Shown: positions 1,995 to 42,525 of the stretch, piece by piece
Layout: the number at the start of each line of letters is the position of its first letter
How positions within the stretch are numbered: position 1 is the stretch's first letter
From: Flavobacteriales bacterium
Lineage (GTDB): Bacteria > Bacteroidota > Bacteroidia > UBA4408
NCBI GenBank assembly: GCA_040374085.1
Contig: JBEIVB010000001.1
Coordinates: 10,074 to 74,073, forward strand
DNA: 64,000 bases
Direction of reading: 5' to 3'
Made by a program: the position numbers and the translations under genes
Notes under the pieces: generated by a model
Told to the model about the DNA's origin: nothing
The model's input: only the letters and a program-made list of their open reading frames with translations
Databases searched by the model: none

Positions 1995-1999
1995 CCCCC

Positions 2000-2587
2000 A
2001 TGGAGCTTGTTTTAGCAACCCATAACAAAGGCAAAGCTCGGGAGTTTAGTCAAATACTGTCACAGTTTTTGCCTGATATCATTGTATTGAGTCTTGACGA
2101 TTTGGGTATTCCAGGGCCACTAAAGGAAAATGGAAATACCCTAGAGGAGAATGCTGTAGAGAAAGCACTTTGGGTTTATCTGCAAACCGGAAAACCATCT
2201 CTATCCGATGATTCCGGATTGGAGGTTGATGCCTTGGGTGGGGCACCGGGGGTTTACAGCGCGCGCTTTGCAGGCCCGGAAGCAACAGCGGCCGAGAACA
2301 ACAACAAATTGCAGCAATACATGCTTGGTGTTGCCAATCGCCGGGCAAGGTTTAGAACTGTATTGTGTCTGGCTGAGGCTTCCGGCCATAGAACCTGGGA
2401 TGGGGTATTGGAGGGTGAAATTGCGACAGCGCAAAGAGGATCAAAGGGATTTGGATACGATCCATTGTTTATTCCACACGGAACCACTCTAACATTTGCC
2501 GAACTTGAGGAAGAAGAAAAGAATCGAATTTCTCATAGACGGATGGCTTTATCGAAAATGGCCAAACATCTTGTCGAAGAAATTTGA
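2000..2587 (+). CDS. rdgB: Non-canonical purine NTP pyrophosphatase (dITP/XTP pyrophosphatase), RdgB/HAM1 family
   Basis: 195 aa. N-terminal LATHNKGKAREF motif and GFGYDPLF motif are characteristic of the Ham1/RdgB family. Confidence 0.85.
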   Translation: MELVLATHNKGKAREFSQILSQFLPDIIVLSLDDLGIPGPLKENGNTLEENAVEKALWVYLQTGKPSLSDDSGLEVDALGGAPGVYSARFAGPEATAAENNNKLQQYMLGVANRRARFRTVLCLAEASGHRTWDGVLEGEIATAQRGSKGFGYDPLFIPHGTTLTFAELEEEEKNRISHRRMALSKMAKHLVEEI

Positions 2588-2641
2588 TGCTTTATACGCG
2601 TTTTAAAGCCATTTAACCAAACCAACTCATAACTTTGCAGT

Positions 2642-3421
2642 ATGAGAGGAGTGATTTTGTTTGCGTTTTGTTTAATGGGCCTTACGCTCCTTCTTGCGTC
2701 TTGGAATCCTGTTTGGGGTCAAACCGAAAAAGATCTATTCGAAAAAGGCATGCGGTGCCGAAAGGAACACGATTACAAAGATGGCATTTTGAGTTTCCAG
2801 AAATTGATGAAACTGGATTCAGGTAATGCCACCTATGTATCGCAGGGAAGTTACTTCTATAGTCGGTACGGATATTCATTTGCGGAACCAGAGAAAAAAA
2901 CAGCATTTTATAACATTGCAACTTATTTAGCGAGAAAAGCAATTCGCTTAGATCCTACTTTAGCTGAGGCACATTACGCTTATGCCCTCGCTTTAGGAAG
3001 GTTAAACGAAAATGCAAGCACCAAGCAAAAAATTGCCAATTCCAAACTCATAAAATCAGAGTTAGACAAAACGCTTAAGCTGCAACCCAAACATGCAGAT
3101 GCATACCACATATTGGGTCGCTGGCATAGAACCATTGCGGGATTTAATGTTTTTGAAAAACTGGCCATCAATACCTTATTCGGTGGAGTACCGGAAGGAG
3201 GATCCTATGAAGAGGCTATTCAATGCTTCCGAAGTGCAATTTCATACGATCCGACGTATAAACTGCATCATTACGAATTAGCCTTTACCCTAAAGGAAAT
3301 GGGCAAGGAAAAGGATGCGAAAATATGGGCTCAGCGCTGTGTGGCATTACCCACAAAAACACTCGACGATAAAAACACCGACATCAAGGCGAAAGCACTG
3401 TTGGAAGATATAGGTAAATAA
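2642..3421 (+). CDS. Secreted TPR-repeat protein (hypothetical)
   Basis: 259 aa with signal-peptide-like N-terminus (FAFCLMGLTLLLASW). TPR-like helical repeats (AEAHYAYALAL, ADAYHILGRW, EEAIQCFRSAISYDP). Confidence 0.5.
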   Translation: MRGVILFAFCLMGLTLLLASWNPVWGQTEKDLFEKGMRCRKEHDYKDGILSFQKLMKLDSGNATYVSQGSYFYSRYGYSFAEPEKKTAFYNIATYLARKAIRLDPTLAEAHYAYALALGRLNENASTKQKIANSKLIKSELDKTLKLQPKHADAYHILGRWHRTIAGFNVFEKLAINTLFGGVPEGGSYEEAIQCFRSAISYDPTYKLHHYELAFTLKEMGKEKDAKIWAQRCVALPTKTLDDKNTDIKAKALLEDIGK

Positions 3422-3430
3422 GGAATTTAT

Positions 3431-5464
3431 ATGTGTGGCATAGCCGGTATCATAGGATTGCATTCTGAGGCTCAAATTGACCCTGGAATAGGCATAGCCA
3501 TGACGGATGTCCTTCGGCATCGGGGCCCAGATGGCTCCGGATATCTATTGAGTGTATGGAATCCTCCAACTGATTGGGGAAGAAACAGCATCCGAGATGG
3601 TAATCGGCTTTTCTTACACCGCCACTACCCTACCCCATTCTTTTTTGGACATAGGCGCCTAAGCATCATTGATCTAAGCAGTCAGGCCAGCCAACCCATG
3701 GAGGATGCAGACCACCTGCATTGGATTGTTTTTAATGGTGAAATATTCAACCACCGGGAGATTCGCTTGGAATTGCAAGGATTGGGATTTCATTTCAAAA
3801 CAGACCACTCCGATACAGAAGTAATCCTGAACGCATACAAAGCATGGGGGTTTAAATGTCTGGAACGATTCAGGGGTATGTTTGCTTTTGTATTATATGA
3901 CGTGCGAATGGATCGGTTTTGGGTGGTTCGAGATCGCATGGGCATCAAGCCACTGTTTTTCACATCGCACGAAGGTTGTTTTCTTTTTGCTAGTGAAATA
4001 AAAGCCTTGCTGAGATTTCCGGGCTTAAAGCGGGAAATGGATGGCCAGGCTCTTTCGGATTTTTTATCGCTTCAATCGGTTCCGGCACCCCGCACCTTTT
4101 TTAAGGGGATATCCAAACTTCAACCCGGGCATTACCTAACCATTGAGTCCGGTAAGATATCGGAACCACATGCCTATTGGAACCCGCTAAAAATCCCAAA
4201 ATCCAGTGAAGACGCCTCTGCAGCGCGTGAAAACCTAAGGACTATTTTTTCAGAATCGGTCAACCTGAGAAGGGAAGCAGATGTTCCCTATGGTTCATTG
4301 CTTTCCGGTGGATTGGATTCGAGCATTACGTTGGCAACCTTAGCTAAATTGGTTGAACAACCTCCTAAGACGTTTACAGTTGGTTTTCCAGAGAGCGATC
4401 AATACACAAATGAATTTTCATATGCCCGCGAGATGTCGGAGCTGTTTCTCTCGGAACACCACGAAATCATGTTGGGCCCAGAAGATTTTGAGGTTTTTTT
4501 TGATGAGCTCGCTTGGGTGATGGATGAACCAATGGCAGATACCGCCAACATCCCAATTTACCACATTTCTCGACTTGCGAAATCCAAAGGAGTCACCATT
4601 TTAATGGGAGGCGAGGGATCTGATGAAATTTTTATTGGCTACGTATTGTGGAAACATCATCACAATTTTTTGCGTCTCGCCGGAAAGAAAAGGAGAATGT
4701 GGCGTTTAAAAATTCTGGACTTTGTCGTAAATCTGCCCGTTGTGAAAAAGAAGCGACCATTTTATGCTCTGTGGTCAAAACGTTTACTTAACAATCAATC
4801 TTCTTTTTGGGGAGGAACAGACAATTGGGATGAGGATGAAAAGCAGCAACATTTTCAATCCGCTTTTAAAGAGAAGCATCGAATAGCATCTACCTATCAA
4901 TCCATTAGACCCATTCATCAGCGCTTTGTTGCTTCCGGCAGAACTTCCGCTCTTGACTTTATGACCTACTTAGATTTAACCGTTCGTTTGCCCGAACTGC
5001 TCCTAGCCAGGTTAGATCGAATGACTATGGCGGCATCCGTAGAAGGCCGTGTTCCATTTTTGGATCATCATTTGGTGGAGTTTGCATTTAGCTTAAACAA
5101 CAAGCTGAAATTGAAATCCGGCATTGAGAAAGCCATTTTAAAGCATGCATACGAAGGGCAATTGCCTAAACACATTGTTTACCGCAAGAAAGATGGATTT
5201 ACGATACCACTTAAGCAGGTTTTTTCCGGCAAGCTATGGGAAAAGGCAAAAATCATTATACATGAATTTAATAAGCAGGAAAACGTATTCGATCCCTCTT
5301 TTTTAGATGATCTGTTTGCGAGAGAAGCACATCAACAGATTCTGTTTTTGTATGGCATTGCCCGTTGGTGGGAATGCTACATTAAGCCAGAATCATTGGA
5401 CCTTGTTGCTCCTTCGTTGTACAGTGTTAAACAAGAAGCTGGAAAAGTGCCGCCTCAAACCTGA
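3431..5464 (+). CDS. asnB: Asparagine synthase (glutamine-hydrolysing)
   Basis: Starts MCGIAG (class-II glutamine amidotransferase Cys2 nucleophile). PP-loop SGGLDSS in the synthetase domain. 677 aa. Confidence 0.85.
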   Translation: MCGIAGIIGLHSEAQIDPGIGIAMTDVLRHRGPDGSGYLLSVWNPPTDWGRNSIRDGNRLFLHRHYPTPFFFGHRRLSIIDLSSQASQPMEDADHLHWIVFNGEIFNHREIRLELQGLGFHFKTDHSDTEVILNAYKAWGFKCLERFRGMFAFVLYDVRMDRFWVVRDRMGIKPLFFTSHEGCFLFASEIKALLRFPGLKREMDGQALSDFLSLQSVPAPRTFFKGISKLQPGHYLTIESGKISEPHAYWNPLKIPKSSEDASAARENLRTIFSESVNLRREADVPYGSLLSGGLDSSITLATLAKLVEQPPKTFTVGFPESDQYTNEFSYAREMSELFLSEHHEIMLGPEDFEVFFDELAWVMDEPMADTANIPIYHISRLAKSKGVTILMGGEGSDEIFIGYVLWKHHHNFLRLAGKKRRMWRLKILDFVVNLPVVKKKRPFYALWSKRLLNNQSSFWGGTDNWDEDEKQQHFQSAFKEKHRIASTYQSIRPIHQRFVASGRTSALDFMTYLDLTVRLPELLLARLDRMTMAASVEGRVPFLDHHLVEFAFSLNNKLKLKSGIEKAILKHAYEGQLPKHIVYRKKDGFTIPLKQVFSGKLWEKAKIIIHEFNKQENVFDPSFLDDLFAREAHQQILFLYGIARWWECYIKPESLDLVAPSLYSVKQEAGKVPPQT

Positions 5465-5579
5465 AGGTTTCCATTCCGGCAATTCGAAAATTGCACTTGA
5501 GGATTTAATGTAACTAAACACAGAAGTGGCATTTCGCATTGCGAAAATCGAGCCATCTGTAATGCTCAATATGAGGGGT

Positions 5580-6665
5580 TTACTTTTTCTCGTGTAATTC
5601 GGGAACAATCAACCGCATAAGTTGATTGTAGGTAATGTCTGAAATATCGACCTGCCCGTGCTTGCAGTATATACCACCCCAATTGTAGGCAACCCTCCGA
5701 AACTCAGTTTGTCTGCCGTTGAGCAAAACTCGGGTCCTCAACATCATGTAATTAACGCCTTCAATGGTATCTTGTCTGAGGTTCAGAACCGTAACGGAGT
5801 CCTTATGGGAATTCCATTGTTTTAACCTTTCGGCCCTTTCGGATTTCTTCTTTTCATCCGCCTCGACCTTTGCTCTAGCTTCTTGGTCTTTGCGTTCCAA
5901 GGTGGCCTTTCTAATCCTTTCACGTTCCTCCTCCAAATCTGCTTTTCTTCTGTTCTCCTCCTCTTCCCTTTCGGTCTTTCGGGAAGCAATAAAGGGCTTG
6001 GATTGAGCGCCTTTTGTGTCCTCCTTAAATGTGTTGTTTTCGGCCGACTTGCGCTTTTCCAACTCGCTTGCCGCCTTTTCCTCTTGTTTCTTTCGATCTT
6101 CTAATTCCTTTGCAGCCTTTTCCTGTGCTTCAAGCTGTTCTTTTTTTGCCTGCTTTGCCTGCTGCTTTATTTTACGGTCAACCTCATCCTGAAGCTGTTC
6201 CAAACGCTTTTTCAGCATCTTATCCACGGTGTAATCAAAATTCTTCTCCTTGGCGGAGTAAAAGATAGCTCCAATTGGCTGGTTCAAAACCGAAACATCC
6301 AAATCGGGCATTTCTTTGAATAGCCTTATTTCCATAAAAAAACGATAGTCATCTGCAGATGGGTCGTTCACGTTAGAGGTAGAAAGGGTTATCATCTTGC
6401 CAACATAACCTGCCTTACTGCAGCGAATAATCAGCTCTTGGTTGGGCCCAACTTCAAACAAAAAACTTCCGCTGTATCCGGTTTGGCTTGATTTCAGCGA
6501 AGTGCCCCCAGCCAAAATTTCGATGTTGGCATTCTCAATCGGCTTTGTGGTTGCCTCATCTTTTACCAAGCCATCTAGTTTTAACTTCCACTGACCCTGC
6601 ACAGAAAGGCTGAGAAAAACGAACAAAAATAGAAGCCTAAAACAGGGTGCAACAGAAGACGCCAT
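5580..6665 (-). CDS. Secreted hypothetical protein: CarboxypepD_reg-like N-domain, long Lys/Glu-rich coiled-coil segment, conserved C-terminal domain
   Basis: 361 aa. Signal peptide (LLFLFVFLSLSVQG). N-domain (NANIEILAGG...TGYSGSFLFEV...GYVGKMITL) resembles the carboxypeptidase-regulatory-like beta-sandwich. ~130 aa of KQQAKQAKKEQLEAQEKAAKELEDRKKQEEK... charged heptad-like sequence. Confidence 0.5.
   Translation of the reverse strand: MASSVAPCFRLLFLFVFLSLSVQGQWKLKLDGLVKDEATTKPIENANIEILAGGTSLKSSQTGYSGSFLFEVGPNQELIIRCSKAGYVGKMITLSTSNVNDPSADDYRFFMEIRLFKEMPDLDVSVLNQPIGAIFYSAKEKNFDYTVDKMLKKRLEQLQDEVDRKIKQQAKQAKKEQLEAQEKAAKELEDRKKQEEKAASELEKRKSAENNTFKEDTKGAQSKPFIASRKTEREEEENRRKADLEEERERIRKATLERKDQEARAKVEADEKKKSERAERLKQWNSHKDSVTVLNLRQDTIEGVNYMMLRTRVLLNGRQTEFRRVAYNWGGIYCKHGQVDISDITYNQLMRLIVPELHEKK
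5795..6170. repeat. Low-complexity purine-rich (GAA/GAG/AAG codon) coding segment of the K/E-rich protein
   Basis: Nucleotide low complexity is visible as ttcctcctcttcc / ctttc runs on the + strand. It generates three spurious + strand ORFs (5764-6006, 5883-6104, 6029-6268). Confidence 0.5.
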
Positions 6666-6719
6666 AGAACAAATATAGCCTAAAACTGCCCACCAAATTG
6701 GGCTCAGGAGGTTATTTGT

Positions 6720-7313
6720 TTAGGACGAAACCGACGTATGTCCAGAATCAGAAAAAATAAACAAAGCTGACTCTGGCCCAACGTTGAAAAACAAATCGAG
6801 GATGCTCATGAACGGGACAAACGGTCGAGAGTCAGAAAAAACTTGATGATAAAAAGGATGCGGTAGCTCCGAAAAATCATCTATCGTGGAGTCGGCGTGT
6901 CTGTATTGAACAAAGTCCTTACTCATCCTCAACCACTTCAGAATAACATCCATGTGGCGGCGGCTTTGCTCTATAAAGCGCTCGGATGGATCTCGAAACA
7001 AATGGTCAACATCAGGTGCGTAAAAAGGGAAATAAGGGGCTTTTTGGTATGCCGCTTCTATGGTTCGCCAATGTTGAATTGGCCAATTCTCTTTAAATGA
7101 GATGGCTATCTCTTCAACAGGTCCATCGAGTGAGGCGGAAATCAGCGGGATTGATAAGCCATGAGGGCCATCGGCCATGGACACATACATGCGATTTAGC
7201 CCTTGCTGCTTTTTTATTGGGTTTCCAAGATCTACCGTAGGAGGGGCTTGGGAGAACAAGAGTTGATAATAGGCAGGCTTAGCAAACCAAACAGGTGGAA
7301 GACCAACCATCAT
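6720..7313 (-). CDS. WbqC-like family protein (LPS/O-antigen-locus-associated, function unknown)
   Basis: 197 aa. Sequence character matches the WbqC-like family (my recollection of Pfam PF08889). Start overlaps lepB stop by 4 nt. Confidence 0.45.
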   Translation of the reverse strand: MMVGLPPVWFAKPAYYQLLFSQAPPTVDLGNPIKKQQGLNRMYVSMADGPHGLSIPLISASLDGPVEEIAISFKENWPIQHWRTIEAAYQKAPYFPFYAPDVDHLFRDPSERFIEQSRRHMDVILKWLRMSKDFVQYRHADSTIDDFSELPHPFYHQVFSDSRPFVPFMSILDLFFNVGPESALFIFSDSGHTSVSS

Positions 7314-8584
7314 CCTTTAGCAACCTTCTTTTTGCGGCGCATTCTTCCGATTAAATATATGCCCAAACCTATACCCGCGACCGGAAAAAACCAGGATGTT
7401 GTTGAACCATCTGTATTGATGGTGCTGAACACACGGTTGTATCGGATCTTCTGAAACAGATTGGTGGCATAGTTGTTTAGACTCATCCAAATGAATACAG
7501 CCTTTCCCACCACGTGGTCTTCGGGAACAAAACCCCAAAAGCGCGAGTCGAGCGAATTGTGACGATTGTCGCCCATCATAAAGAAATAATTCATTTGGAA
7601 CTTATACTCAGATGCGGGTTTTCCGTCGATCCGAATATTCCCCCCATCTGTGCTTAATGCATGCCCTTCGTACACGGTGATGAGGCGCGCGTACAAGGGT
7701 AGATTCCCCAAGGTCAATTTTACGGTTTTGCCCTTGCTGGGTATTTCTATAGGCCCAAAGTTATCGACATTCCAAACGTTGTTTCCGGATTGAGGAAAAA
7801 TATTGGGGTCTGCATACGATTGGCCATCCTTTTCTATATGAGGCTTGAGCGAAACCACATTGCCAAAACCTTTTATCGCTTCTGCAGCCTTTCCCGTCAT
7901 AAATGCCTGATATTCAGTTCCGGGCGCTTGGCCACTTTCAAACAATTCGTACACATCCAGCTTGCGAAGAGCCTCAGGGTTTAGTGGATTGCCATCGGTT
8001 TGAATATCGTAACGAAGTTGTAAATTCTTGGGACATTCGGCTTTTTTTCCGTTCACCCACAAGACACCTTGCTTCACCTCTAAAACATCGTCCGGAATGC
8101 CTACGCAGCGCTTGATGTAGTTCTTGCGCTTGTCTACCGGACGAAACTCTTCCATTGGATAATTGAACACGACCACATCGTTGCGCTGCACTTTTCCCAT
8201 GCCAGGTAAGCGCATATAGGGTAACTTAAGCCACTCCAGATATGACTTTGAATTGGTTATGGGCATGGTGTGGTGGACAAAAGGAAAAGACAGCGGTGTA
8301 TTGGGAACCCTGGGGCCATAGGAGAGCTTACTTACAAACAGAAAATCACCTATGAGGAGACTCCGTTCCATAGAAGCAGTGGGAATGGTAAATGCCTCAA
8401 ACAAAAACGTGCGGATAAGAGTAGCAGCAATTACTGCAAAAAGAATTGCCTCTGCCCATTCACGTTTAAGTGATTTCTTCTTATTGCTTTTCCGCAGCAG
8501 GAAATACAATCCAAAAGTAATAATACCCAAAATGATTTTTAACCACCAGGGATAGGAAGTATTTTGGGCTTGATTGGCCGACAT
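7310..8584 (-). CDS. lepB: Signal peptidase I
   Basis: N-terminal TM segment. Box B SMERSLLIGD (catalytic Ser) and box D/E GDNRHNSLDSRFWGFVPEDHVVGKAVFIWMS are diagnostic of S26 signal peptidase I. Confidence 0.85.
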   Translation of the reverse strand: MSANQAQNTSYPWWLKIILGIITFGLYFLLRKSNKKKSLKREWAEAILFAVIAATLIRTFLFEAFTIPTASMERSLLIGDFLFVSKLSYGPRVPNTPLSFPFVHHTMPITNSKSYLEWLKLPYMRLPGMGKVQRNDVVVFNYPMEEFRPVDKRKNYIKRCVGIPDDVLEVKQGVLWVNGKKAECPKNLQLRYDIQTDGNPLNPEALRKLDVYELFESGQAPGTEYQAFMTGKAAEAIKGFGNVVSLKPHIEKDGQSYADPNIFPQSGNNVWNVDNFGPIEIPSKGKTVKLTLGNLPLYARLITVYEGHALSTDGGNIRIDGKPASEYKFQMNYFFMMGDNRHNSLDSRFWGFVPEDHVVGKAVFIWMSLNNYATNLFQKIRYNRVFSTINTDGSTTSWFFPVAGIGLGIYLIGRMRRKKKVAKG

Positions 8585-34936: not shown

Positions 34937-36625
34937 ATGTCAGACGATAAAAAAGTTATTTTTTCCATGGTGAAGGTTTCCAAAACCCTCAATACAGGAA
35001 AAACCATTCTCAAAGACATTTACCTTTCCTTTTTCTACGGAGCCAAAATTGGCATCATAGGATTGAATGGATCCGGAAAATCAACCCTCCTTAAAATCAT
35101 TGCCGGCTTAGAGAAATCCTATCAGGGTGATGTTGTTTTCTCACCGGGATACCATGTGGGTTATCTCGAGCAGGAACCTCAGCTTGATGAAAACAAAACC
35201 GTTAAGCAGATTGTCATGGAAGGCGTTCAGGAAACAGTAGATTTGCTAAACGAATTCGAGGAAATCAACCATAAATTTGGATTGCCTGAATATTATGAAA
35301 ATCCTGAGGCTATGGAAAAGCTGATGAATCGGCAGGCAGCCATACAGGATAAAATTGATGCAGTAAACGCATGGGATTTAGACAACCAACTGGAGGTCGC
35401 AATGGATGCGTTGCGATGCCCCGATGGCGACACCCCAATTCATGTTCTTTCGGGTGGTGAACGGCGGAGGGTTGCCCTTTGCCGACTTCTGCTTAAAAAG
35501 CCGGAAATCCTGCTGTTGGATGAGCCCACCAACCACCTCGATGCCGAGTCGGTTGATTGGTTGGAGCAGTTTCTGCACAACTATGAAGGAACGGTTATTG
35601 CCGTTACACACGACCGTTACTTCTTGGACAACGTTGCGGGATGGATTCTTGAACTAGACCGCGGAGAAGGCATCCCTTGGAAAGGAAATTACTCCTCTTG
35701 GCTCGAGCAAAAAGGCAAACGCCTTGCTCAGGAAGAAAAAACCGAGAGCAAACGCCAGAAAACCCTAGCCCGAGAATTGGAATGGGTAAGGCAAGGTGCA
35801 AAAGGAAGACAAGCCAAGAGCAAAGCTCGCTTGGCTGCTTACGATCGAATGCTCAGCGAAGATGTGAAGGCCAAAGAAGAGAAACTCGAAATCTTCATAC
35901 CCAACGGTCCCCGACTTGGAAATGAAGTAATCGAATTCGAAGGCGTTTCAAAAGCTTATGGAGATAAAGTTCTGTTCGAGAACCTTAGCTTCCGTCTTCC
36001 ACCCGCCGGCATCGTGGGCATCATCGGACCAAACGGTGCAGGAAAATCAACCTTGTTTAAAATTATTATGGGCTTGGTAGAGGCAGACAAGGGTAAGGTT
36101 ATCATTGGAGATACGGTGCGCATCAGCTACGTAGACCAAAGCCACAAGGATATCGAGGCCGATAAATCGGTGTTTGAAGTCGTGGCGCGCGGAGCCGAAC
36201 TCATTGAAATGGGCGGCAGGCAAATGAACGCAAGGGCATTCCTCTCACGCTTCAACTTCAACGGAGCCGACCAAGGCAAAAAATGTGGAGTGTTGTCAGG
36301 AGGAGAGCGCAACCGATTGCACCTGGCCATGGCACTTAAAGCAGAAGGCAATGTGCTGCTCTTGGACGAACCCACCAACGATATAGACGTAAATACCCTG
36401 AGGGCACTCGAAGAGGGCCTTGAAAGCTTTGCAGGTTGCGCAGTAATCATATCACACGACCGTTGGTTTCTCGATCGGGTGTGTACACACATACTTGCTT
36501 TTGAAGGAGATTCGCAAGTGTTATACTTCGAAGGGGGATACTCCGACTATGAAGAAAATAAAAAGAAGCGATTGGGCGATGTGCAACCAAAACGTTTGCG
36601 CTATAAAAAACTTACCGTAAGCTGA
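34937..36625 (+). CDS. ettA: ABC-F ATPase, energy-dependent translational throttle protein EttA
   Basis: Two ABC ATPase domains (GLNGSGKST, LSGGERRRVAL; GPNGAGKST, LSGGERNRLHLA) with the typical EttA N-terminus MSDDKKVIFSM.... Listed ORF starts 7 codons earlier. Confidence 0.85.
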   Translation: MSDDKKVIFSMVKVSKTLNTGKTILKDIYLSFFYGAKIGIIGLNGSGKSTLLKIIAGLEKSYQGDVVFSPGYHVGYLEQEPQLDENKTVKQIVMEGVQETVDLLNEFEEINHKFGLPEYYENPEAMEKLMNRQAAIQDKIDAVNAWDLDNQLEVAMDALRCPDGDTPIHVLSGGERRRVALCRLLLKKPEILLLDEPTNHLDAESVDWLEQFLHNYEGTVIAVTHDRYFLDNVAGWILELDRGEGIPWKGNYSSWLEQKGKRLAQEEKTESKRQKTLARELEWVRQGAKGRQAKSKARLAAYDRMLSEDVKAKEEKLEIFIPNGPRLGNEVIEFEGVSKAYGDKVLFENLSFRLPPAGIVGIIGPNGAGKSTLFKIIMGLVEADKGKVIIGDTVRISYVDQSHKDIEADKSVFEVVARGAELIEMGGRQMNARAFLSRFNFNGADQGKKCGVLSGGERNRLHLAMALKAEGNVLLLDEPTNDIDVNTLRALEEGLESFAGCAVIISHDRWFLDRVCTHILAFEGDSQVLYFEGGYSDYEENKKKRLGDVQPKRLRYKKLTVS

Positions 36626-36629
36626 ACCC

Positions 36630-37355
36630 ATGAGCCAAGAACACCGGGAAAATCAACCCCGGGTGCTGTTGGTTGAGGATGAAGAACACCTGCTCGAAAC
36701 CATCACCCTAAACCTGGAGCTCGAGGGCATGGAAGTGATCCGTGCAGTTGAAGGGAAACAGGCCCTGAAGTACTTTCACAGCGCCCGATACGATCTCATC
36801 ATACTGGATGTGATGCTCCCAGAAATAGATGGTTTCACCCTGTGCCGAACGATGCGCAAAGAAAACCCTTTGGTGCCCATACTCATGCTCACAGCCAAGG
36901 GAAGCAACCAAGATCGAGTGGAAGGCTTGAAACTGGGCGCAGATGATTACCTAACAAAACCATTTCACTTGGAAGAATTCCTGCTCAGGGTTCACGGACT
37001 CATACGGCGGGGACGGCAGCAAAGTCCGAGCCCGTCTATAGAGCAATACCGATTCGGCCCAAACCAAGTCGATTTCCGATCCTACCGCGTAATCTGCGCA
37101 GATGGAACCGAACAAACGCTTACAAAAAAGGAAGTGCAGCTTCTGAAGCTCCTCATTGAAATGGAAAGCCAAGTGGTGTCACGCGATGCCATTTTGGAAT
37201 TGGTCTGGGGCTACGAAATATACCCCACCGCCCGCACCATCGACAACTTCATTTTAAATTTTAGAAAGTACTTTGAGCCCAATCCCAAGCAACCCATCTA
37301 TTTTCACTCCATTCGTGGAGTGGGATACAAGTTTGTAAAGAACGGAGGCATTTGA
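36630..37355 (+). CDS. Two-component response regulator, OmpR/PhoB family (no cognate kinase nearby)
   Basis: Receiver domain (LLVEDEE...DLIILDVMLP...LTAKGS...GADDYLTKPF) and winged-helix output domain. Only 4 nt after ettA. Confidence 0.85.
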   Translation: MSQEHRENQPRVLLVEDEEHLLETITLNLELEGMEVIRAVEGKQALKYFHSARYDLIILDVMLPEIDGFTLCRTMRKENPLVPILMLTAKGSNQDRVEGLKLGADDYLTKPFHLEEFLLRVHGLIRRGRQQSPSPSIEQYRFGPNQVDFRSYRVICADGTEQTLTKKEVQLLKLLIEMESQVVSRDAILELVWGYEIYPTARTIDNFILNFRKYFEPNPKQPIYFHSIRGVGYKFVKNGGI

Positions 37356-38419
37356 GTTTCTCTCTACACGAGGCTGGCATGGGTAATTTTGTGTATTTTG
37401 CGCGATTGAATATGGCGAGAAGTCTTATCTTCCTGATTCTGTGGTGCTTACCTTTTATAGGGCTTGCTCAAACCCCAACCGTGCAGGTTTGGATGCAGGG
37501 TGCGGGGTACCGCGATTCTTCGTTTTATGACATTCTTCCTCTTTCCGGGGGGGATTGTTGGGTTGCCGGCAAATACGGCATTCTCAAAAAGGTAACGCCA
37601 GATGGGAAAATAGACAATGTGCCCTACCCCACGCTCGGCTTAGACATTTACCGCCTAGGTGCGTTCGACGAAGATCACCTCATTGCGTGCGCAGACAAAG
37701 GGGTCGTTTATCTCCATCAACCTTCCACAAAAAACTGGAATACCGTTAAAGTTAAGGGTTATGAAAAGTCTTGTTTTTACAGCCTAAAAGTGGTAAACAA
37801 AAGCACGGCTTTCTTGTGCGGTGGCAACAGCAAAATTGCACATTCCCAAAAAGCAATTCCACGGGGCTTTATTCTAAAATCGGAAGACGGCGGGCTTACA
37901 TGGAAAGAGGTTTACAGGAATGTGGGACAGATGGTTTGGGATGTGGCTTGGGATTCGGAAAGAAATTCATGCACCGCACTGGTTTACAGTCCAAACAAAA
38001 CCAGGCTCTACCGCTCCGATGCCCAAGGAGAAAATTGGAAAAATGAAAAAAAACTCGGGCAAGGTATTTTTTACCAAGCCGGGTGGAACAACGGCCAACT
38101 TGCCTGTACGGGCGGAACATTAAAAGGCGATGGGCGTATTTTCGAGGAAGGTCACGATGAGATTTTCAGAAAAGTTGGGTTGATATGGAGTGCAAAAAAA
38201 AATGGGGCTAAAGAGGTCTTTACTGGCAGTAGGTCCACGCTCCTCTTGAGGGAAGGTTCCAACCAGCCCCTTCAAGTTTTTTCCACCGGACTTACCAAAC
38301 AATACAACCTATACCGAGCTCATTTTCTAAGCGACTCTAAGGTTTTGGTTGTGGGCAGCGGAAAAACGATGCTGCTGCTCGAATGGCCCTATCCGGCGGA
38401 AGCCCGCCAAAAGCCATAG
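37352..38419 (+). CDS. Secreted BNR/Asp-box repeat beta-propeller protein (Ycf48/sialidase-like fold), hypothetical
   Basis: Asp-box motifs SEDGGLTWKEV and SDAQGENWKN. Signal peptide MARSLIFLILWCLPFIGLAQ, so the real start may be the Met at 37412. The listed start overlaps the response regulator stop by 4 nt. Confidence 0.5.
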   Translation: MSFSLHEAGMGNFVYFARLNMARSLIFLILWCLPFIGLAQTPTVQVWMQGAGYRDSSFYDILPLSGGDCWVAGKYGILKKVTPDGKIDNVPYPTLGLDIYRLGAFDEDHLIACADKGVVYLHQPSTKNWNTVKVKGYEKSCFYSLKVVNKSTAFLCGGNSKIAHSQKAIPRGFILKSEDGGLTWKEVYRNVGQMVWDVAWDSERNSCTALVYSPNKTRLYRSDAQGENWKNEKKLGQGIFYQAGWNNGQLACTGGTLKGDGRIFEEGHDEIFRKVGLIWSAKKNGAKEVFTGSRSTLLLREGSNQPLQVFSTGLTKQYNLYRAHFLSDSKVLVVGSGKTMLLLEWPYPAEARQKP

Positions 38420-38421
38420 CT

Positions 38422-39774
38422 TTAAGGCTCTCTTGCCAAAAGCTCGGCATACAATGCCGTTGTTAGGCTGGAGGATCGAAAAAAAAGACAGTTTCTTACT
38501 ACCGTTCCTCCACTGAAAAAAACACCGCCGGGCAAATACGCTTCCTCTCCATTCGAAACTACCTGAGTTTCTAGAAAAGCTTTGGCCTTGGATAAGGCTT
38601 TTTTAGCCTGCTCATCCTCTTTCCCCAAAATGGAAAGAGCCAGAGCAGCATAAAGGGTGTTTTGTATGCGATCTCCTTTTAGAATACGATGCCTGCCTTT
38701 ATAAGATCCATCAGGTCTTTGGGTACGCAGCAAATGCTTCAATGCCGTATGCCTAGCCTCATTGAGCTCCGGGTTTCCAGCATCCCAAGCCCGAGCAATG
38801 GCCAAATGAAAAGTATACCGATTGGGATAATACGTTCCTCCTCTTGACCAACGTCCGGTTCGCGCTTTTTTATTGATTAAACGTATAGCACCCGCTCTCG
38901 GGCAAATGGAATCCGGTACTCCAGCTTTTCCCAGGTATGTAAGTACATTACAATTAACCACTCCATCGAATTCATTTGCTCCATAAGGAATGTACTCTCT
39001 TTTGCCATCTGGATAACACGAACTCCACGGTGCAAAAAACCAGATGTTTGCCCATAAAGTTTTATATATACTCCAACCACCAGGATATTGGTGCTCATCT
39101 GACAGCCAGGTTAAGAATGCGCCTCTCCCATAAGACAGATCAAATGAGTAATTGTACCAGTGGAAGTTTTTTCGATTCTCATCTGTATAGCAGCTCATGG
39201 GTATTTGCGCAGGGGGCTTTGCTCCATGCCACCACTCCGCGAGCAGCCCGGTAGAAGTATCATCAGCATCTGGAGCCACATTGGCTGCATGATTGATGAA
39301 CGGTTTTTTTAAGGGGAAGCAGGTAGGTCTTATTACCGAGTCGGGAGGGCTCTTGCCCCATCCGGGATTGGGCTTCAGATGCTTCCAAAAATAATACCGC
39401 CCGTTCCGTTTATAGGTGAGCAACTCCCGATAGGAATCATCCATCATCTTCTTCACAAAGGCCTCCACCTCGTTCCTCTGAACTACCTCGCAAAGAGCAT
39501 TGTGAACGGCAATGGTTGTAAACGCGTTCGAATCTCGAAACCTACCCTTCTTGCCCAACATAACAAAGGCAAATTTTAATTCCATAGAACCGGGCCATTC
39601 CCCCTGAAAAGCAGTATCGGCAACAGATTGGGTAACCTGCTGGTGATAAAGGTAGGTCAGCAAGGAACTCAACCTTGCAGAGGGCTTAGCAAGCACCTGA
39701 GCACCCAAAGGTCTGCTGCTCGCAAACACCAAGATGATCAGCCAAAGAATAAGACCCGCTCGTTTTAGTATCAT
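38422..39774 (-). CDS. Secreted hypothetical protein with QW-like repeats and a DxDD(T/S) motif (prenyltransferase/squalene-cyclase-repeat-like alpha/alpha-toroid candidate)
   Basis: Probable start MILKRAGLILWLIILVFASSRPLGAQV (signal peptide). The listed ORF runs to 40050 but overlaps the divergent GT gene. Motifs DADDTS, EHQYPGGWS, LRTQRPDGSYKG. Confidence 0.4.
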   Translation of the reverse strand: MILKRAGLILWLIILVFASSRPLGAQVLAKPSARLSSLLTYLYHQQVTQSVADTAFQGEWPGSMELKFAFVMLGKKGRFRDSNAFTTIAVHNALCEVVQRNEVEAFVKKMMDDSYRELLTYKRNGRYYFWKHLKPNPGWGKSPPDSVIRPTCFPLKKPFINHAANVAPDADDTSTGLLAEWWHGAKPPAQIPMSCYTDENRKNFHWYNYSFDLSYGRGAFLTWLSDEHQYPGGWSIYKTLWANIWFFAPWSSCYPDGKREYIPYGANEFDGVVNCNVLTYLGKAGVPDSICPRAGAIRLINKKARTGRWSRGGTYYPNRYTFHLAIARAWDAGNPELNEARHTALKHLLRTQRPDGSYKGRHRILKGDRIQNTLYAALALSILGKEDEQAKKALSKAKAFLETQVVSNGEEAYLPGGVFFSGGTVVRNCLFFRSSSLTTALYAELLAREP

Positions 39775-39796
39775 TGCAACAAAGGTAATCAAGCCA

Positions 39797-40849
39797 ATGT
39801 CGCACTCCCACAAGGTATTGATCGCAGCACTGCATTGGGGCATTGGCCATGCCAGCAGGTGCATTCCCATTGCCAGAGCGTTCGAGGAGCTTGGCTGGGA
39901 GGTGACGGTGGCTTCGGATGGAGCTGCATTGGACCTTTTGCGGATTTCTCTACCGCATTTGGAGGCCTTAGAGATGCCGGGGCTGGAGGTATCGTATTCG
40001 CCAGAACCCTTTTCAAGTCTGGGGCATTTGAGTTTGGTTCCGCGACTCATTCGTCACATCAACAAAGACCAAAAATGGCTTAAGAGCCTAACTCAAACGA
40101 ATAACTTTGATTTAATCATCAGCGACCACAGGCTGGGGATTTGGCACCCACGTATTCCTAGCATTTTGGTCGCACACCAGCTCAGCATTCCCTTTCCCGT
40201 TGGCCTTCAGTTCCTCAATCGCTTTCACCATCGATTACTGAAGCCTTTTAAAGAAGTGTGGATTCCAGATGCGCCTAATGGAACCCTCTCCGGATCGCTT
40301 TCCGCATGGCCATCAAGCCCTTATCGAGCTTGGAATATGGGTCTACTTTCCCGCTTTTTTCCTGAACCTGCGCCTGCCACTTCTCCTTCCGAGGATTACA
40401 TACTCGGAATGGCGTCCGGTCCTCCACCTCAACGCGAGTTTTTCATCGATTGCTTGTTAAGTTGGGCGCCCAAAATGCCTCTTCCTTTGGTGTTGATTGA
40501 AGGTTCGCCGGGCCAATTACATGAACATTATCAGGGAACCGTTCGATGTTTCAATCACCTCCCCACCGATGAACTAGCGCAATTTATAAGAGGAGCTTCA
40601 TTTGTTGTTGCACGTTCGGGCTATTCGACCCTAATGGATCTTGCCGCCTTTCAAAAACCTGCCTTGCTGGTGCCAACACCGGGCCAATGGGAACAAGAAT
40701 ACTTGGCAAAGTACCTGAGTGCACAATATGGGTTCAGCACCGCAACGCAAAACCCCGGTCAAACTCCAAACTTCAACAATATAAAAAGCAACTGGCCTAA
40801 AAACTTAGCTTTCTTTACAAAAGAGACCCTGGAATTGAAACTAAGCTAA
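39797..40849 (+). CDS. Glycosyltransferase, MurG-like (GT28 C-terminal domain / GT1 superfamily), not the cell-division murG
   Basis: C-terminal ASFVVARSGYSTLMDLAAFQKPALLVPTPGQWEQEYLAKYL matches the GT28-C pattern (R.G..T..E...G.P.ilvP......EQ..NA). N-terminal HWGIGHASRC glycine-rich loop. Start taken at internal Met (MSHSHKV...). Confidence 0.55.
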   Translation: MSHSHKVLIAALHWGIGHASRCIPIARAFEELGWEVTVASDGAALDLLRISLPHLEALEMPGLEVSYSPEPFSSLGHLSLVPRLIRHINKDQKWLKSLTQTNNFDLIISDHRLGIWHPRIPSILVAHQLSIPFPVGLQFLNRFHHRLLKPFKEVWIPDAPNGTLSGSLSAWPSSPYRAWNMGLLSRFFPEPAPATSPSEDYILGMASGPPPQREFFIDCLLSWAPKMPLPLVLIEGSPGQLHEHYQGTVRCFNHLPTDELAQFIRGASFVVARSGYSTLMDLAAFQKPALLVPTPGQWEQEYLAKYLSAQYGFSTATQNPGQTPNFNNIKSNWPKNLAFFTKETLELKLS

Positions 40850-40863
40850 AAGCGATAAGCGCA

Positions 40864-41538
40864 TCAGGGTTCGTACTTGTAACCTATGCCCTTTATGGTT
40901 TTAATGTAGTTTTCTCCCAGCTTTTCACGCAATTTTCGGACGTGCACGTCTATGGTGCGATCTCCTACTACCACGTCTTCTCCCCAAACCTTGTTGAGGA
41001 TGGTAAGTCGGGTAAACACATGACCGGGTTTCGACATCAACAAATCGATCAATTCGAACTCTTTTTTGGGCAGCTGCAGAGGCTGGCCATCCTTAAACAC
41101 CACAAACTTGGCCCGATCGGCACGCAATCCCTCATTGCTTGGCATTTCCTCTTGGCTATCCAACCGTCTCAACAAGGCCTGCAGTCGACTGATGAGAACC
41201 CTTGGCTTGATGGGCTTCGTAATGTAATCGTCGCCTCCCGATTCGAACCCGCTGATCTGCGAATAATCCTCGCCCCTGGCGGTGAGAAAGGCAATGATAA
41301 CTTTGTTGTTTCTTAACCCAACTCTAATTTCACGGGTCGTTTCCATGCCGTCCATTTCAGGCATCATCACGTCCATAAGAATCAAATGGGGATTCCAAGA
41401 TCGGGTTAGAGTAATCGCCAATTTGCCATTTTCGGCGGTCTCCACTTGATACCCCTCTTTACGTAGGTTGTGCTCCAAAATTTCACGAATGTCTTCCTCA
41501 TCGTCAACAATTAGGATTCGGATGTCGGCTGGATTCAT
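40864..41538 (-). CDS. Two-component response regulator, OmpR/PhoB family (no cognate kinase nearby)
   Basis: ILIVDDEEDIREIL...LILMDVMMPEMDG...LTARGED...GGDDYITKPI receiver. Winged-helix C-terminus (TRLTILNKVWGEDVVVGDRTIDVHVRKLREKL). Confidence 0.85.
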   Translation of the reverse strand: MNPADIRILIVDDEEDIREILEHNLRKEGYQVETAENGKLAITLTRSWNPHLILMDVMMPEMDGMETTREIRVGLRNNKVIIAFLTARGEDYSQISGFESGGDDYITKPIKPRVLISRLQALLRRLDSQEEMPSNEGLRADRAKFVVFKDGQPLQLPKKEFELIDLLMSKPGHVFTRLTILNKVWGEDVVVGDRTIDVHVRKLREKLGENYIKTIKGIGYKYEP

Positions 41539-41586
41539 GGAGTGGGATATTTTTGCACGAAGGTATTCGCCTTAAACCATTTCTGA

Positions 41587-42525
41587 TTGAAACGCACCGT
41601 TAAGAATTCGTTATTACCGCTGTTGAGGCTCTGGTTGCTTTGCCTGATGGGCGCTCAACCCCAAACGTTAAGGGCCCAGGACGATTGGGCCTGGTGGAAA
41701 AACCGTCACCGTTGGCCGGGTGATCGTTCCCCGCTCGAGTACATTGTTCGTGCACCGGGTCGTATGGGCCCCAACGCCTTGCCCATACCAGGCATTCCCG
41801 ATCCGAGTATTGGATACCGCACCCGGTGCTGGCTTGCCGGAAACTGGGCGGGAGGAAGAGGCGACCAGACCCTAAATCCAGAGATTGGCATTTATTTTCC
41901 TTTACTCAAAAACCGTTTGGCTCTGGAAGCCCGCACCAATGGGTTCGAATACTACCGAATGAGCGCCGAAACGAGGGATTTCAGAATGGCCAAAGACAGC
42001 ATAGGCGAGGGATTTTCGAAATCTGAAACTTACCTAACCATCCTTGCACGGCTTTGGTCGGAATCCAATGCCAGACCGGCTTGCTCAATAACCTTCTCTG
42101 TAAAACCAACTACAGGAAAAAACCTGGAAAACGCCCGTCACATTAATGCACCGGCCTATTCATTTGCATGGTGCAGCGGTGGAAAATTGGACTGGTTGGG
42201 ATTTTCAGGATGGTCGTACCGCGCTCAAATCGGGGGTATGATTTGGCAAAAAGGAGATGATGCACAAAACGATGCATGGATTTATGGCTTGGGTGTTTCC
42301 CGGCATTGGGTCAATCTTACCGCTTCCATGTTTTGGCTCGGAATGCAGGGTTATACCGGGTTAGGCGACCGGCCTCAGGTGCTCCGCGGAACAATCAACT
42401 ATGGTTGGAAAAAATGGGAGTTGGAAACCGGTTGCCAATATGCACTCCGCGATTTTGTACCCTGGTTTGCCCAAGCAAAACTCATTTGGAAATGGGATTG
42501 GGCTGATAGAACCAATTCCTATTAA
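41587..42525 (+). CDS. Secreted Trp/Gly-rich hypothetical protein (putative outer-membrane beta-barrel)
   Basis: 312 aa. Apparent TTG start 48 nt from the divergent response-regulator start. Signal peptide LLPLLRLWLLCLMGAQPQTLRAQ. Alternating aromatic/hydrophilic pattern and C-terminal aromatic-rich end. Confidence 0.4.
   Translation: MKRTVKNSLLPLLRLWLLCLMGAQPQTLRAQDDWAWWKNRHRWPGDRSPLEYIVRAPGRMGPNALPIPGIPDPSIGYRTRCWLAGNWAGGRGDQTLNPEIGIYFPLLKNRLALEARTNGFEYYRMSAETRDFRMAKDSIGEGFSKSETYLTILARLWSESNARPACSITFSVKPTTGKNLENARHINAPAYSFAWCSGGKLDWLGFSGWSYRAQIGGMIWQKGDDAQNDAWIYGLGVSRHWVNLTASMFWLGMQGYTGLGDRPQVLRGTINYGWKKWELETGCQYALRDFVPWFAQAKLIWKWDWADRTNSY

Follow-up and report, generated by a model that had tools for sequence, protein, structure and literature searches.

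What does an exported protein with an apparent class II terpene cyclase motif do outside the cytoplasm, and which neighbouring gene product does it work with? The question is raised by one gene of the window (here, the whole 64,000-nucleotide stretch of Flavobacteriales DNA that was analysed), which a sequence-only reading had tentatively placed in a periplasm-facing module of terpenoid or lipid cyclisation and glycosylation, together with a secreted Asp-box propeller and a MurG-like glycosyltransferase (Table 1).

Table 1. Features of the toroid locus in window coordinates; residue numbers refer to the toroid precursor unless stated, and fractions are counts over its full-length relatives.
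Feature	Coordinates	Strand	Details
Propeller gene (BNR/Ycf48-like, exported, seven-bladed predicted)	37412..38419	(+)	Alternative starts 37352 (TTG) and 37379 (ATG)
Canonical Asp-box SEDGGLTW in propeller	37880..37903	(+)	Regex S.D.G..W on translation
Toroid gene	38422..39774	(-)	450-aa precursor; predicted exported beta-domain-only class II terpene-cyclase-like toroid
C-terminal motif GGVFFSGGTVVRN	38491..38529	(-)	G417 and F420 near-invariant
QW-type repeat RTQRPDGSYKG	38695..38727	(-)	aa 350-360; Q352 208/235, G356 225/235
YYPNRY motif (Y315, Y316, Y320)	38815..38832	(-)	Y315 234/235, Y316 235/235
FDGVVNCNVL helix (D270, N274, N276)	38941..38970	(-)	N276 232/235
YTDENR (D198 to R201)	39166..39183	(-)	Invariant Asp/Arg; aligned with the YFDDNR368 segment of AsDMS
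DADDTS, predicted DxDD general-acid motif (D169, D171, D172)	39253..39270	(-)	aa 169-174; essentially invariant
Toroid signal peptide	39697..39774	(-)	aa 1-26, MILKRAGLILWLIILVFASSRPLGA/Q; read from sequence
GT-B glycosyltransferase (PF04101 + PF13528, TIGR00661-like)	39797..40849	(+)	Divergent neighbour, outside the conserved unit

The toroid protein begins MILKRAG. Its open frame extends to position 40050, and some public gene calls use the resulting 542-residue version, but homologues begin at the MILKRAG methionine. The signal peptide already seen in the first reading is of Sec type, with K4/R5 followed by a hydrophobic core and then LGA/Q; in a diverse set of 49 relatives, 42 have a comparable hydrophobic stretch at the N-terminus, and three distant members of that set carry a lipobox. 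A HAD domain was sought in the protein and found no match, the signal peptide being all that lies N-terminal of the barrel. A scan of positions 36500-41700 for sigma-70 promoters and terminators returned fewer sites than shuffled sequence and is thus uninformative, as expected for Bacteroidota.

The family comprises at least about 680 (681) sequence clusters at 50% identity, mostly from aquatic Bacteroidota, and the 235 full-length relatives over which we counted residue conservation span at least two phyla. Its distribution among Bacteroidota is patchy. The nearest genome loci encode proteins ~42% identical to the window's toroid, and identical proteins come from metagenome contigs. There is no Pfam or NCBIfam model for the family, and a literature search for the activity, substrate or localisation of any member found no reports. 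Among distant relatives of 500-640 residues, the gene contexts inspected contained no conserved neighbour and so offer no functional clue; one of these distant relatives adjoins a CrtI-like amine oxidase gene, and a PAP2 gene lies near another.

Fold comparison assigned the toroid protein an (alpha/alpha)6 beta-domain fold, settling the choice between toroid and non-toroid that the first reading had left to structure prediction, and its best Foldseek match was AsDMS, the drimenol synthase of Aquimarina spongiae (Bacteroidota). A family profile built from 49 toroid sequences and searched against PDB sequences matched AsDMS (E = 8.2e-7), OSC (8.3e-7), Rv3377c (2.9e-6), SsDMS (2e-5) and SHC (3.1e-5), with weaker matches to AstC, MstE and ent-CPS (~5e-4) and to 6ij1 (0.1). 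Only class II cyclases were significant, and no other class fell below E = 0.1, so that the cyclase likeness first suggested by short motifs now holds at profile level. The single sequence scores below the Pfam cut-offs for SQHop_cyclase_N/C (14.6 and 13.9 bits against 26.2 and 26.1) and below that for TIGR01787 squalene cyclases (16 bits against 322.7).

The DADDTS motif itself, the core of the earlier proposal, withstood the homologue alignment that had been suggested as its check. From the composition of the protein, ~0.003 motifs of this type would be expected, and D169 is present in 235/235 relatives, D171 in 234/235 and D172 in 222/235, with Thr in 11. Because the motif is not due to chance and is conserved across the 235 relatives, the toroid protein is, judged by profile and motif, a genuine member of the class II cyclase superfamily, strongly diverged and made up of the beta domain only. 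The two QW-like motifs fared unequally. RTQRPDGSYKG stands, holding a single conserved Q-x3-G-S-[FYW] repeat (residues 352-358) onto which the weak Pfam/NCBIfam TED and squalene-cyclase (SQHop_cyclase) matches map; EHQYPGGWS (residues 227-235) is rejected as a QW motif since E227 is its sole conserved residue. A better second candidate is an interrupted QW-like element, YLxxxQ...GEW (Q46, G58-E59-W60).

By alignment, the class II acid machinery appears to be retained, with DxDD (D171), N276 and Y320 in register, alongside many invariant aromatic residues. In characterised enzymes the middle Asp of DxDD, the counterpart of D171, serves as the general acid. The local alignments that place DADDTS on D321-L-D323-T of AsDMS and D374-V-D376-D377 of SHC are each weak (5.7 and -1.3 bits), and they owe their credibility solely to collinearity with the significantly matching part. 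Searched on its own against PDB, a sub-profile limited to the DxDD region gave no significant match (ribosomal L20 noise at the top, ent-CPS residues 293-325 at E 0.87), so the motif register rests on the full-profile alignments. Toroid D171, N276 and Y320 align with D376, H451 and Y495 of SHC, an Asp-His/Asn-Tyr arrangement in which N276 also falls on Rv3377c H341, the position of the hydrogen-bond partner of the general acid. The C-terminal GGVFFSGGTVVRN motif aligns with the C-terminal LWIAKTLYCSATVVKA of Rv3377c. When the SHC beta domain was fitted to the family model, hmmalign aligned only residues 275-412; we do not claim a by-eye match of the same motif to SHC residues 602-614.

In AsDMS, D323 is the general acid and R368 and Y416 bind phosphate (PMC12232559). 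Sequence alignment makes R201 (227/235; D198, 232/235) and Y315 of the toroid equivalent to these two phosphate-binding residues, and the two proteins have in common, in register, the motifs DxD[DT]T (D171/D323), YrDxnR (R201/R368), VDxVVNxNVL and YYP (Y315/Y416). Both consist of a single beta domain without a gamma domain. AsDMS, at an identity of ~14-16%, nevertheless resides in the cytoplasm and carries a fused HAD phosphatase domain, whereas the toroid has a signal peptide, a propeller partner and no HAD domain, and holds ~55-70 extra residues with invariant motifs between R201 and D270. The comparison covered DMS-1/HAD-like terpene cyclases including fungal AstC (PDB 9mhs, 9m7d and 22ty). 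The Scytonema monodomain meroterpenoid cyclase MstE (PDB 6sbb) differs in carrying a DxD motif, and it and the ~340-residue myxobacterial and actinobacterial monodomain cyclases (8paj, 8pak, 6ij1) are cytoplasmic, ~100 residues shorter and encoded in biosynthetic clusters. The beta-gamma triterpene cyclases SHC and OSC share DxDDT[AS] and, apparently, a QW-type repeat with the toroid, which in contrast to them lacks a gamma domain and a membrane-dipping helix, falls below the family cut-offs and is exported.

The propeller, regarded in the first reading as merely an upstream gene, is the toroid's conserved gene partner: it abuts the 3' end of the toroid gene in 42-43 of 80 related loci, in two orientations (convergent and co-directional) and in deep clades, and in a reverse check starting from propeller homologues three of four loci had a toroid next door. 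About 35 of the 80 loci have no adjacent propeller. In Lacihabitans and Leadbetterella the toroid gene is followed by a gene for 331 residues (cluster 4), which was considered as a divergent propeller and set aside, looking by eye like a zinc-type alcohol dehydrogenase/quinone oxidoreductase. That the window's propeller is a secreted Asp-box protein was read correctly from the start; its signal peptide is MARSLIFLILWCLPFIGLA/Q, and a second, degenerate Asp-box, SDAQGENW, accompanies the canonical one. The AF2 model has seven blades (pLDDT 92.4). In its predicted seven blades, extracytoplasmic location (lumen or periplasm), length of ~330 residues and Asp-box remnants it resembles Ycf48/HCF136-type BNR propellers, and some sources name it 'photosystem II stability/assembly factor-like'. 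PSII_BNR (PF14870) is matched by 5 of 15 orthologues (best 3.8e-8) and not by the window propeller, and no recognisable catalytic family was found for it.

The most plausible guess is that an isoprenoid lipid of the envelope undergoes chemistry set off by protonation. D171 would protonate a C=C bond (or an epoxide) of an isoprenoid lipid in the periplasm, the substrate presumably having an anionic or polar head group and being presented from the membrane, and protonation would start cyclisation or hydration. The toroid would work in concert with the propeller encoded next door, itself exported and predicted to have seven blades, which may be a substrate-delivery subunit or an active-site cap replacing the missing gamma domain. 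Taken as a whole, the account of an exported beta-only cyclase relative that protonates an isoprenoid lipid in the periplasm with its propeller has, in our estimate, an even chance of being right. Several points count against it. Besides the weakness of the local alignments that place the DxDD motif and the ~35 loci with no adjacent propeller, the family conserves numerous polar residues (E59, D81, N83, D198, N208, E227, N267, D270, N274 and N318), a larger set than a cyclase acting purely on hydrocarbons would require; to our knowledge, undecaprenyl-PP is the sole isoprenoid diphosphate to be expected outside the cytoplasm; and in the loci compared, genes of isoprenoid biosynthesis were not among the conserved neighbours.

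In another role the toroid would be coupled to the elongasome and, on the periplasmic face, would bind or process lipid II, undecaprenyl-(di)phosphate or a related polyprenyl-linked intermediate, and would not make a terpenoid natural product. Undecaprenyl-PP is the isoprenoid diphosphate expected at that face, and the matches of R201 and Y315 to phosphate-binding residues would suit it. Gene order adds a hint of the cell-wall lipid-carrier cycle: in one clade, 11 loci have mreD - mrdA (PBP2) - rodA - toroid - propeller on one strand, with rodA-to-toroid gaps of -29 to +44 bp, and in other clades the immediate neighbours of the toroid include a YkuD L,D-transpeptidase, a PAP2-superfamily protein and a beta-lactamase-family protein, in addition to the PAP2 gene near a distant relative. 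The rodA linkage is, however, confined to a single monophyletic clade and so amounts to about one event; the remaining neighbours vary by clade, and these genomes are rich in envelope genes. An essential elongasome role is disfavoured by the patchy, non-core distribution of the family in Bacteroidota, and we know of no enzyme that cyclises or hydrates the undecaprenyl carrier. We regard this role as unlikely, although it would overlap with the preferred explanation should the polyprenyl chain be what is protonated. A bolder form of the preferred explanation, to which we attach a small probability, would make the toroid an extracytoplasmic class II cyclase with a dedicated propeller subunit, protonating a polyprenyl lipid and cyclising (or hydrating) it on the outer side of the inner membrane, where the substrate could be undecaprenyl-(di)phosphate released by RodA/PBP2.

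Less probable than the lipid-carrier role is a periplasmic enzyme that has kept the acid for a non-isoprenoid substrate such as a glycan or unsaturated uronate, in the manner of the (alpha/alpha)6 families GH88/GH105, or that acts on exogenous small terpenoids as periplasmic linalool dehydratase-isomerase does. Profile searches against PDB sequences returned no glycoside hydrolase or lyase even at E = 10, identity to such (alpha/alpha)6 folds is 8-12% against 13-18% for cyclases, and neither SusC/SusD nor other polysaccharide-utilisation genes are conserved beside the toroid. Membership of the (alpha/alpha)6 glycoside hydrolase/epimerase families (GH88, GH105, GH76, GH8, AGE) was rejected, there being no sequence or closest-fold relationship. 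The linalool dehydratase-isomerase of Castellaniella defragrans (PDB 5i3t) has no detectable sequence relationship to the toroid and uses Cys/His/Asp catalytic residues, with no DxDD.

The protein could also be a non-catalytic periplasmic binding or scaffold toroid, complexed with the propeller and comparable to the alpha-2-macroglobulin TED or transcobalamin. A weak Pfam TED_complement match (E 0.0048), the presence of alpha-2-macroglobulin and CD109 among the fold matches and the propeller's lack of a recognisable catalytic family are consistent with it. But the acidic triad and its partners are near-absolute over the 235 sequences, a pattern typical of catalysis, and with the family profile C3d/TED reaches E = 0.2 where cyclases reach 1e-6. 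We rejected TED domain membership (PF07678, 16.5 bits, cut-off 22; no CGEQ thioester motif), and think the scaffold role somewhat more doubtful still.

There remains the glycosyltransferase. Its assignment as a GT28-C/GT1-type enzyme was sound: its scores exceed the Pfam thresholds for Glyco_tran_28_C (PF04101; 33.7 bits against 22) and Glyco_trans_1_3 (PF13528; 29.4 against 25), matches that liken it to GT-B enzymes such as MurG and TIGR00661 (MJ1255/VC2487), while identity as MurG proper (TIGR01133) is rejected (29 bits, cut-off 250.25). Its uncharacterised family, whose homologues have both domains, is Bacteroidota-wide with >1,700 matches, far broader than that of the toroid, and has contexts of its own, beside lgt or diacylglycerol kinase (DAGK). 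None of the 80 related loci has a homologue within 6 kb of the toroid gene. The glycosyltransferase, like two response regulators, is therefore not a conserved partner of the toroid, and glycosylation of a cyclase product lacks comparative support. GT28/GT1 enzymes do act on lipids, the start codon lies 22 bp from that of the toroid on the opposite strand, and toroid, propeller and glycosyltransferase stay together in close relatives at 84-89% identity (a 10-kb contig), but with a cytoplasmic-type GT-B enzyme that has no signal peptide, and with no homologue of it in the 80 related loci, the three-gene module in which it would glycosylate the cyclase product is very improbable.

We know of no characterised class II terpene cyclase that is exported, and a literature search for secreted or periplasmic ones found nothing relevant; as far as the literature searched shows, the known enzymes are cytoplasmic or inner-leaflet and serve secondary or membrane-lipid biosynthesis. 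Export and pairing with a propeller, in a family that has kept the acid apparatus, would widen the range of cellular sites at which terpene-cyclase chemistry takes place, and would offer a third way of shielding the active site of a beta-only cyclase, after the loop of MstE and the long loops of AsDMS. Family genes occur in culturable bacteria, including Emticicia oligotrophica (Emtol_1823) and Runella species. Should the acid have been re-used for other chemistry, the family would clearly exemplify functional drift in the superfamily; should the cell-wall link be true, it would point to a step of the polyprenyl carrier cycle not yet recognised. And if the reading as an extracytoplasmic cyclase is true, the toroid would be the first class II cyclase of its kind and would tie terpene-cyclase chemistry to envelope lipid-carrier homeostasis in Bacteroidota.

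Homology and structure comparisons place the toroid, a 450-aa protein with a predicted export signal, within the class II terpene cyclase superfamily as a divergent, beta-only member. Its AlphaFold2 model, built with a 35-sequence alignment (pLDDT 87.8, pTM 0.88), contains twelve main helices, and its top 32 Foldseek matches were all class II cyclases, led by the drimenol synthase AsDMS. Searched alone against Pfam and TIGRFAM, the protein matched TED (thioester domain), SQHop_cyclase_N/C and squalene cyclase models below threshold, all at aa 328-413, and a profile of its close relatives matched PDB entries marginally. A 49-sequence family profile gave significant PDB matches to class II cyclases only: AsDMS (E = 8.2e-7), lanosterol synthase (8.3e-7), Rv3377c (2.9e-6), SsDMS (2e-5), squalene-hopene cyclase (SHC; 3.1e-5), and AstC, MstE and ent-CPS (each ~5e-4); the next protein class was complement C3d, at E 0.2.

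A word-indexed search returned 141 homologues, all unnamed or 'hypothetical', and an exhaustive profile search returned 681 cluster representatives at E <= 1e-3, 159 of them at E <= 1e-30. The sequence-only reading had noted a DxDD[TS] motif like that of class II terpene cyclases and would have been refuted by variable aspartates; every motif it quoted was found in the sequence, and conservation of the aspartates across the family means that this test does not refute it. When 235 full-length sequences were aligned to the family model, all 235 kept D169, 234 kept D171, 222 kept D172 (11 have Thr) and 212 kept T173 (16 have Ser); R201 occurs in 227 and Y315 in 234. This conservation of DxDD counts for more than the chance expectation of D.DD[TS], ~0.003 from toroid composition. 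The family D-a-D-D-t aligned onto AsDMS D321-L-D323-T-T, R201 with R368, and Y315 with Y416. The putative acid motif hardly varies across the family, and neither do its aligned partners. The structure paper on AsDMS (PMC12232559) identifies D323 as the general acid of catalysis and assigns phosphate binding to R368, R370, R415 and Y416. The alignment pieces bearing DxDD are individually weak (5.7 and -1.3 bits), and gain credibility only from their collinearity with the part that is significant. On an SHC sequence of 631 aa, in which all landmark residues carry their published numbers and which scores 26.4 bits like the 1gsz match, the family model placed DxDD on D374-V-D376-D377, N276 on H451 and Y320 on Y495.

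More distant relatives of 500-640 aa also carry N[IV]PnDADDT[AS]; they have an insertion-rich N-terminal half, keep all core motifs (P0222, P0228, P0236, P0245, P0257, P0258, P0262), and in several cases bear lipoprotein-type signals. Three of their loci (L083, L085, L086) showed neither a propeller neighbour nor a conserved gene context. Because a 490-aa relative comes from Oligoflexia (P0173), the family extends beyond Bacteroidota.

Predicted export signals characterize the family. The toroid begins with a signal peptide of classical type (K4, R5, hydrophobic core, LGA|Q), and an N-terminal hydrophobic 12-mer (Kyte-Doolittle mean >= 1.6) is present in 42 of 49 diverse relatives, the others appearing truncated or mis-started; three distant relatives among the 49 have a lipobox. 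The positive-inside rule would place the toroid domain outside the cytoplasm, with or without cleavage of the peptide.

Features of the window and of related loci (L-numbers)
Feature	Position	Strand	Remark
Response regulator, OmpR-type (Response_reg + Trans_reg_C)	36630-37355	+	left flank of the three genes
Propeller gene	likely start 37412 (MARSLIFL...), end 38419	+	longer frames from 37352 and 37379
Asp-box SEDGGLTW		+	in propeller
Toroid gene, 450 codons	38422-39774	-	between propeller and glycosyltransferase genes
DADDTS	aa 169-174, nt 39253-39270	-	toroid
EHQYPGGWS	aa 227-235	-	toroid
RTQRPDGSYKG	aa 350-360	-	toroid
Glycosyltransferase gene	39797-40849	+	divergent from toroid gene
Response regulator, OmpR-type (Response_reg + Trans_reg_C)	40864-41538	-	right flank of the three genes
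mreD-mrdA-rodA-toroid-propeller loci	~350-8400 in each		freshwater Bacteroidota MAGs; L042, L046, L047, L048, L051, L060, L063, L067, L071, L075, L078
YkuD-type (YkuD_2) L,D-transpeptidase	immediate neighbour, upstream of toroid		L036, L040, L061, L066
Secreted PAP2-superfamily protein	immediate neighbour, upstream of toroid		L043, L050, L070, L074
Beta-lactamase-family protein with DUF3471	immediate neighbour, downstream of toroid		L024, L029, L031, L032

The conserved gene partner of the toroid is the propeller, predicted to be an exported, seven-bladed BNR/Ycf48-like protein. We compared gene contents within 6 kb of the toroid gene across 80 loci (Runella, Emticicia, Lacihabitans, Leadbetterella, Jiulongibacter, Chitinophagaceae, Saprospiraceae, Flavobacteriales MAGs and Marivirga); in 42-43 of them the propeller gene directly adjoins the 3' end of the toroid gene, and no other gene family is common to more than 11. 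Convergent pairs, as in the window, occur at 23 loci spanning Cytophagales and Chitinophagales (L001-L066), with stop-to-stop distances of -30 to +12 bp at 21 of them, and co-directional pairs at ~20, mostly with toroid-to-propeller gaps of 0-67 bp. In a neighbour-joining tree of toroid proteins, each arrangement occupies deep clades and the propeller has apparently been lost from several sub-clades; approached in reverse, from propeller homologues, three of four loci had a toroid gene next door. Because adjacency recurs, both arrangements are deep and the reverse search agrees, toroid and propeller form the conserved unit.

Two toroid paralogues occur in each of Emticicia sp. BO119 (L018/L050), Emticicia sp. 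SJ17W-69 (L025/L044) and E. aquatilis (L031/L065); the propeller adjoins one paralogue and not the other in BO119, and in the remaining two genomes both paralogues lack a propeller within 6 kb. The propeller-adjacent toroid of a Spirosomataceae MAG (L092, 4989-6215, minus strand) is called as two fragments (237 + 77 aa), with residues 59-443 covered by tblastn; the split may come from a frameshift or an error of assembly, or mark a pseudogene.

In the window, 2 bp separate the tail-to-tail propeller and toroid stops (38419-38424). Convergent stops this close leave no room for a terminator, so that the transcripts must either form antisense overlaps or terminate within the gene opposite; the only nearby terminator-like hairpin lies within the toroid coding region (38584-38599, plus strand). 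The divergent toroid and glycosyltransferase starts are 22 bp apart, and the promoter of each must therefore sit within the other gene. TACCTTTG at 39781-39788 (minus strand) fits TAnnTTTG, the Bacteroidota -7 promoter element; its position, only 6 nt before the toroid ATG, points to an mRNA with no leader or a very short one. The toroid frame is open as far as 40050, and some public gene calls run to 542 aa (P0001, P0451); these 92 additional codons (39775-40050, minus strand), which cross the glycosyltransferase start on the opposite strand, are an over-extension, as homologues start at the MILKRAG methionine.

At 11 loci of one clade, mreD, mrdA (PBP2), rodA, toroid and propeller follow one another on one strand with operon-like spacing (rodA-to-toroid gap -29 to +44 bp), and toroid and propeller seem to belong to the elongasome operon there. 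Together with the immediate neighbours that differ between other clades (Table), this is suggestive of a recurring cell-envelope theme, which we treat as a lead rather than evidence of function because every case is confined to one lineage and genes of this kind are common.

We propose that in the periplasm D171 would serve as the general acid towards an isoprenoid lipid, at a C=C or an epoxide, that the conserved Arg and Tyr residues may point to an anionic head group on this substrate, and that the propeller could be a subunit that either delivers the substrate or forms a cap in place of the gamma domain. One rival, which overlaps with this explanation, is a function in the lipid-carrier cycle of peptidoglycan, to which the elongasome genes are relevant as a lead. 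Acid catalysis on a non-isoprenoid substrate and a non-catalytic binding protein are further, less probable rivals.

The cyclisation-glycosylation module of the sequence-only reading is contradicted by the comparative data, since none of the 80 loci holds a homologue of the window glycosyltransferase within 6 kb of the toroid gene; that reading was half right, its cyclase-like toroid standing and its module not. The glycosyltransferase is a GT-B enzyme (PF04101 and PF13528 above cut-offs) of a TIGR00661-like family with >1,700 matches across Bacteroidota; MurG was ruled out by equivalog score. Its homologues in three other genome contexts lie directly upstream of lgt (prolipoprotein diacylglyceryl transferase; twice), or by a prokaryotic diacylglycerol kinase and a polysaccharide deacetylase (L087, L088, L089 and L091, ~5001-6100; L090), neighbours that suggest a general function in membrane glycolipids or the envelope, with no tie to the toroid. 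The 312-aa, signal-peptide-bearing product of 41587-42525 (plus strand; no Pfam or NCBIfam matches) likewise had no homologue within 6 kb at the 80 loci, and the flanking response regulators, neither with a histidine kinase beside it, gave two weak matches ~4 kb from the toroid gene and are not conserved beside it elsewhere.

Described beta-only cyclases comprise MstE-type monodomain enzymes and HAD-fused DMS-1 enzymes only, for which water exclusion by loops is a problem to solve (PMC12414744). Unlike these, the toroid carries an export signal and has a propeller as gene partner, a form absent from that account and from the literature searched. A known enzyme superfamily thereby gains a form predicted to be exported, of moderate to clear interest to terpene enzymology and to the envelope biology of Bacteroidota.
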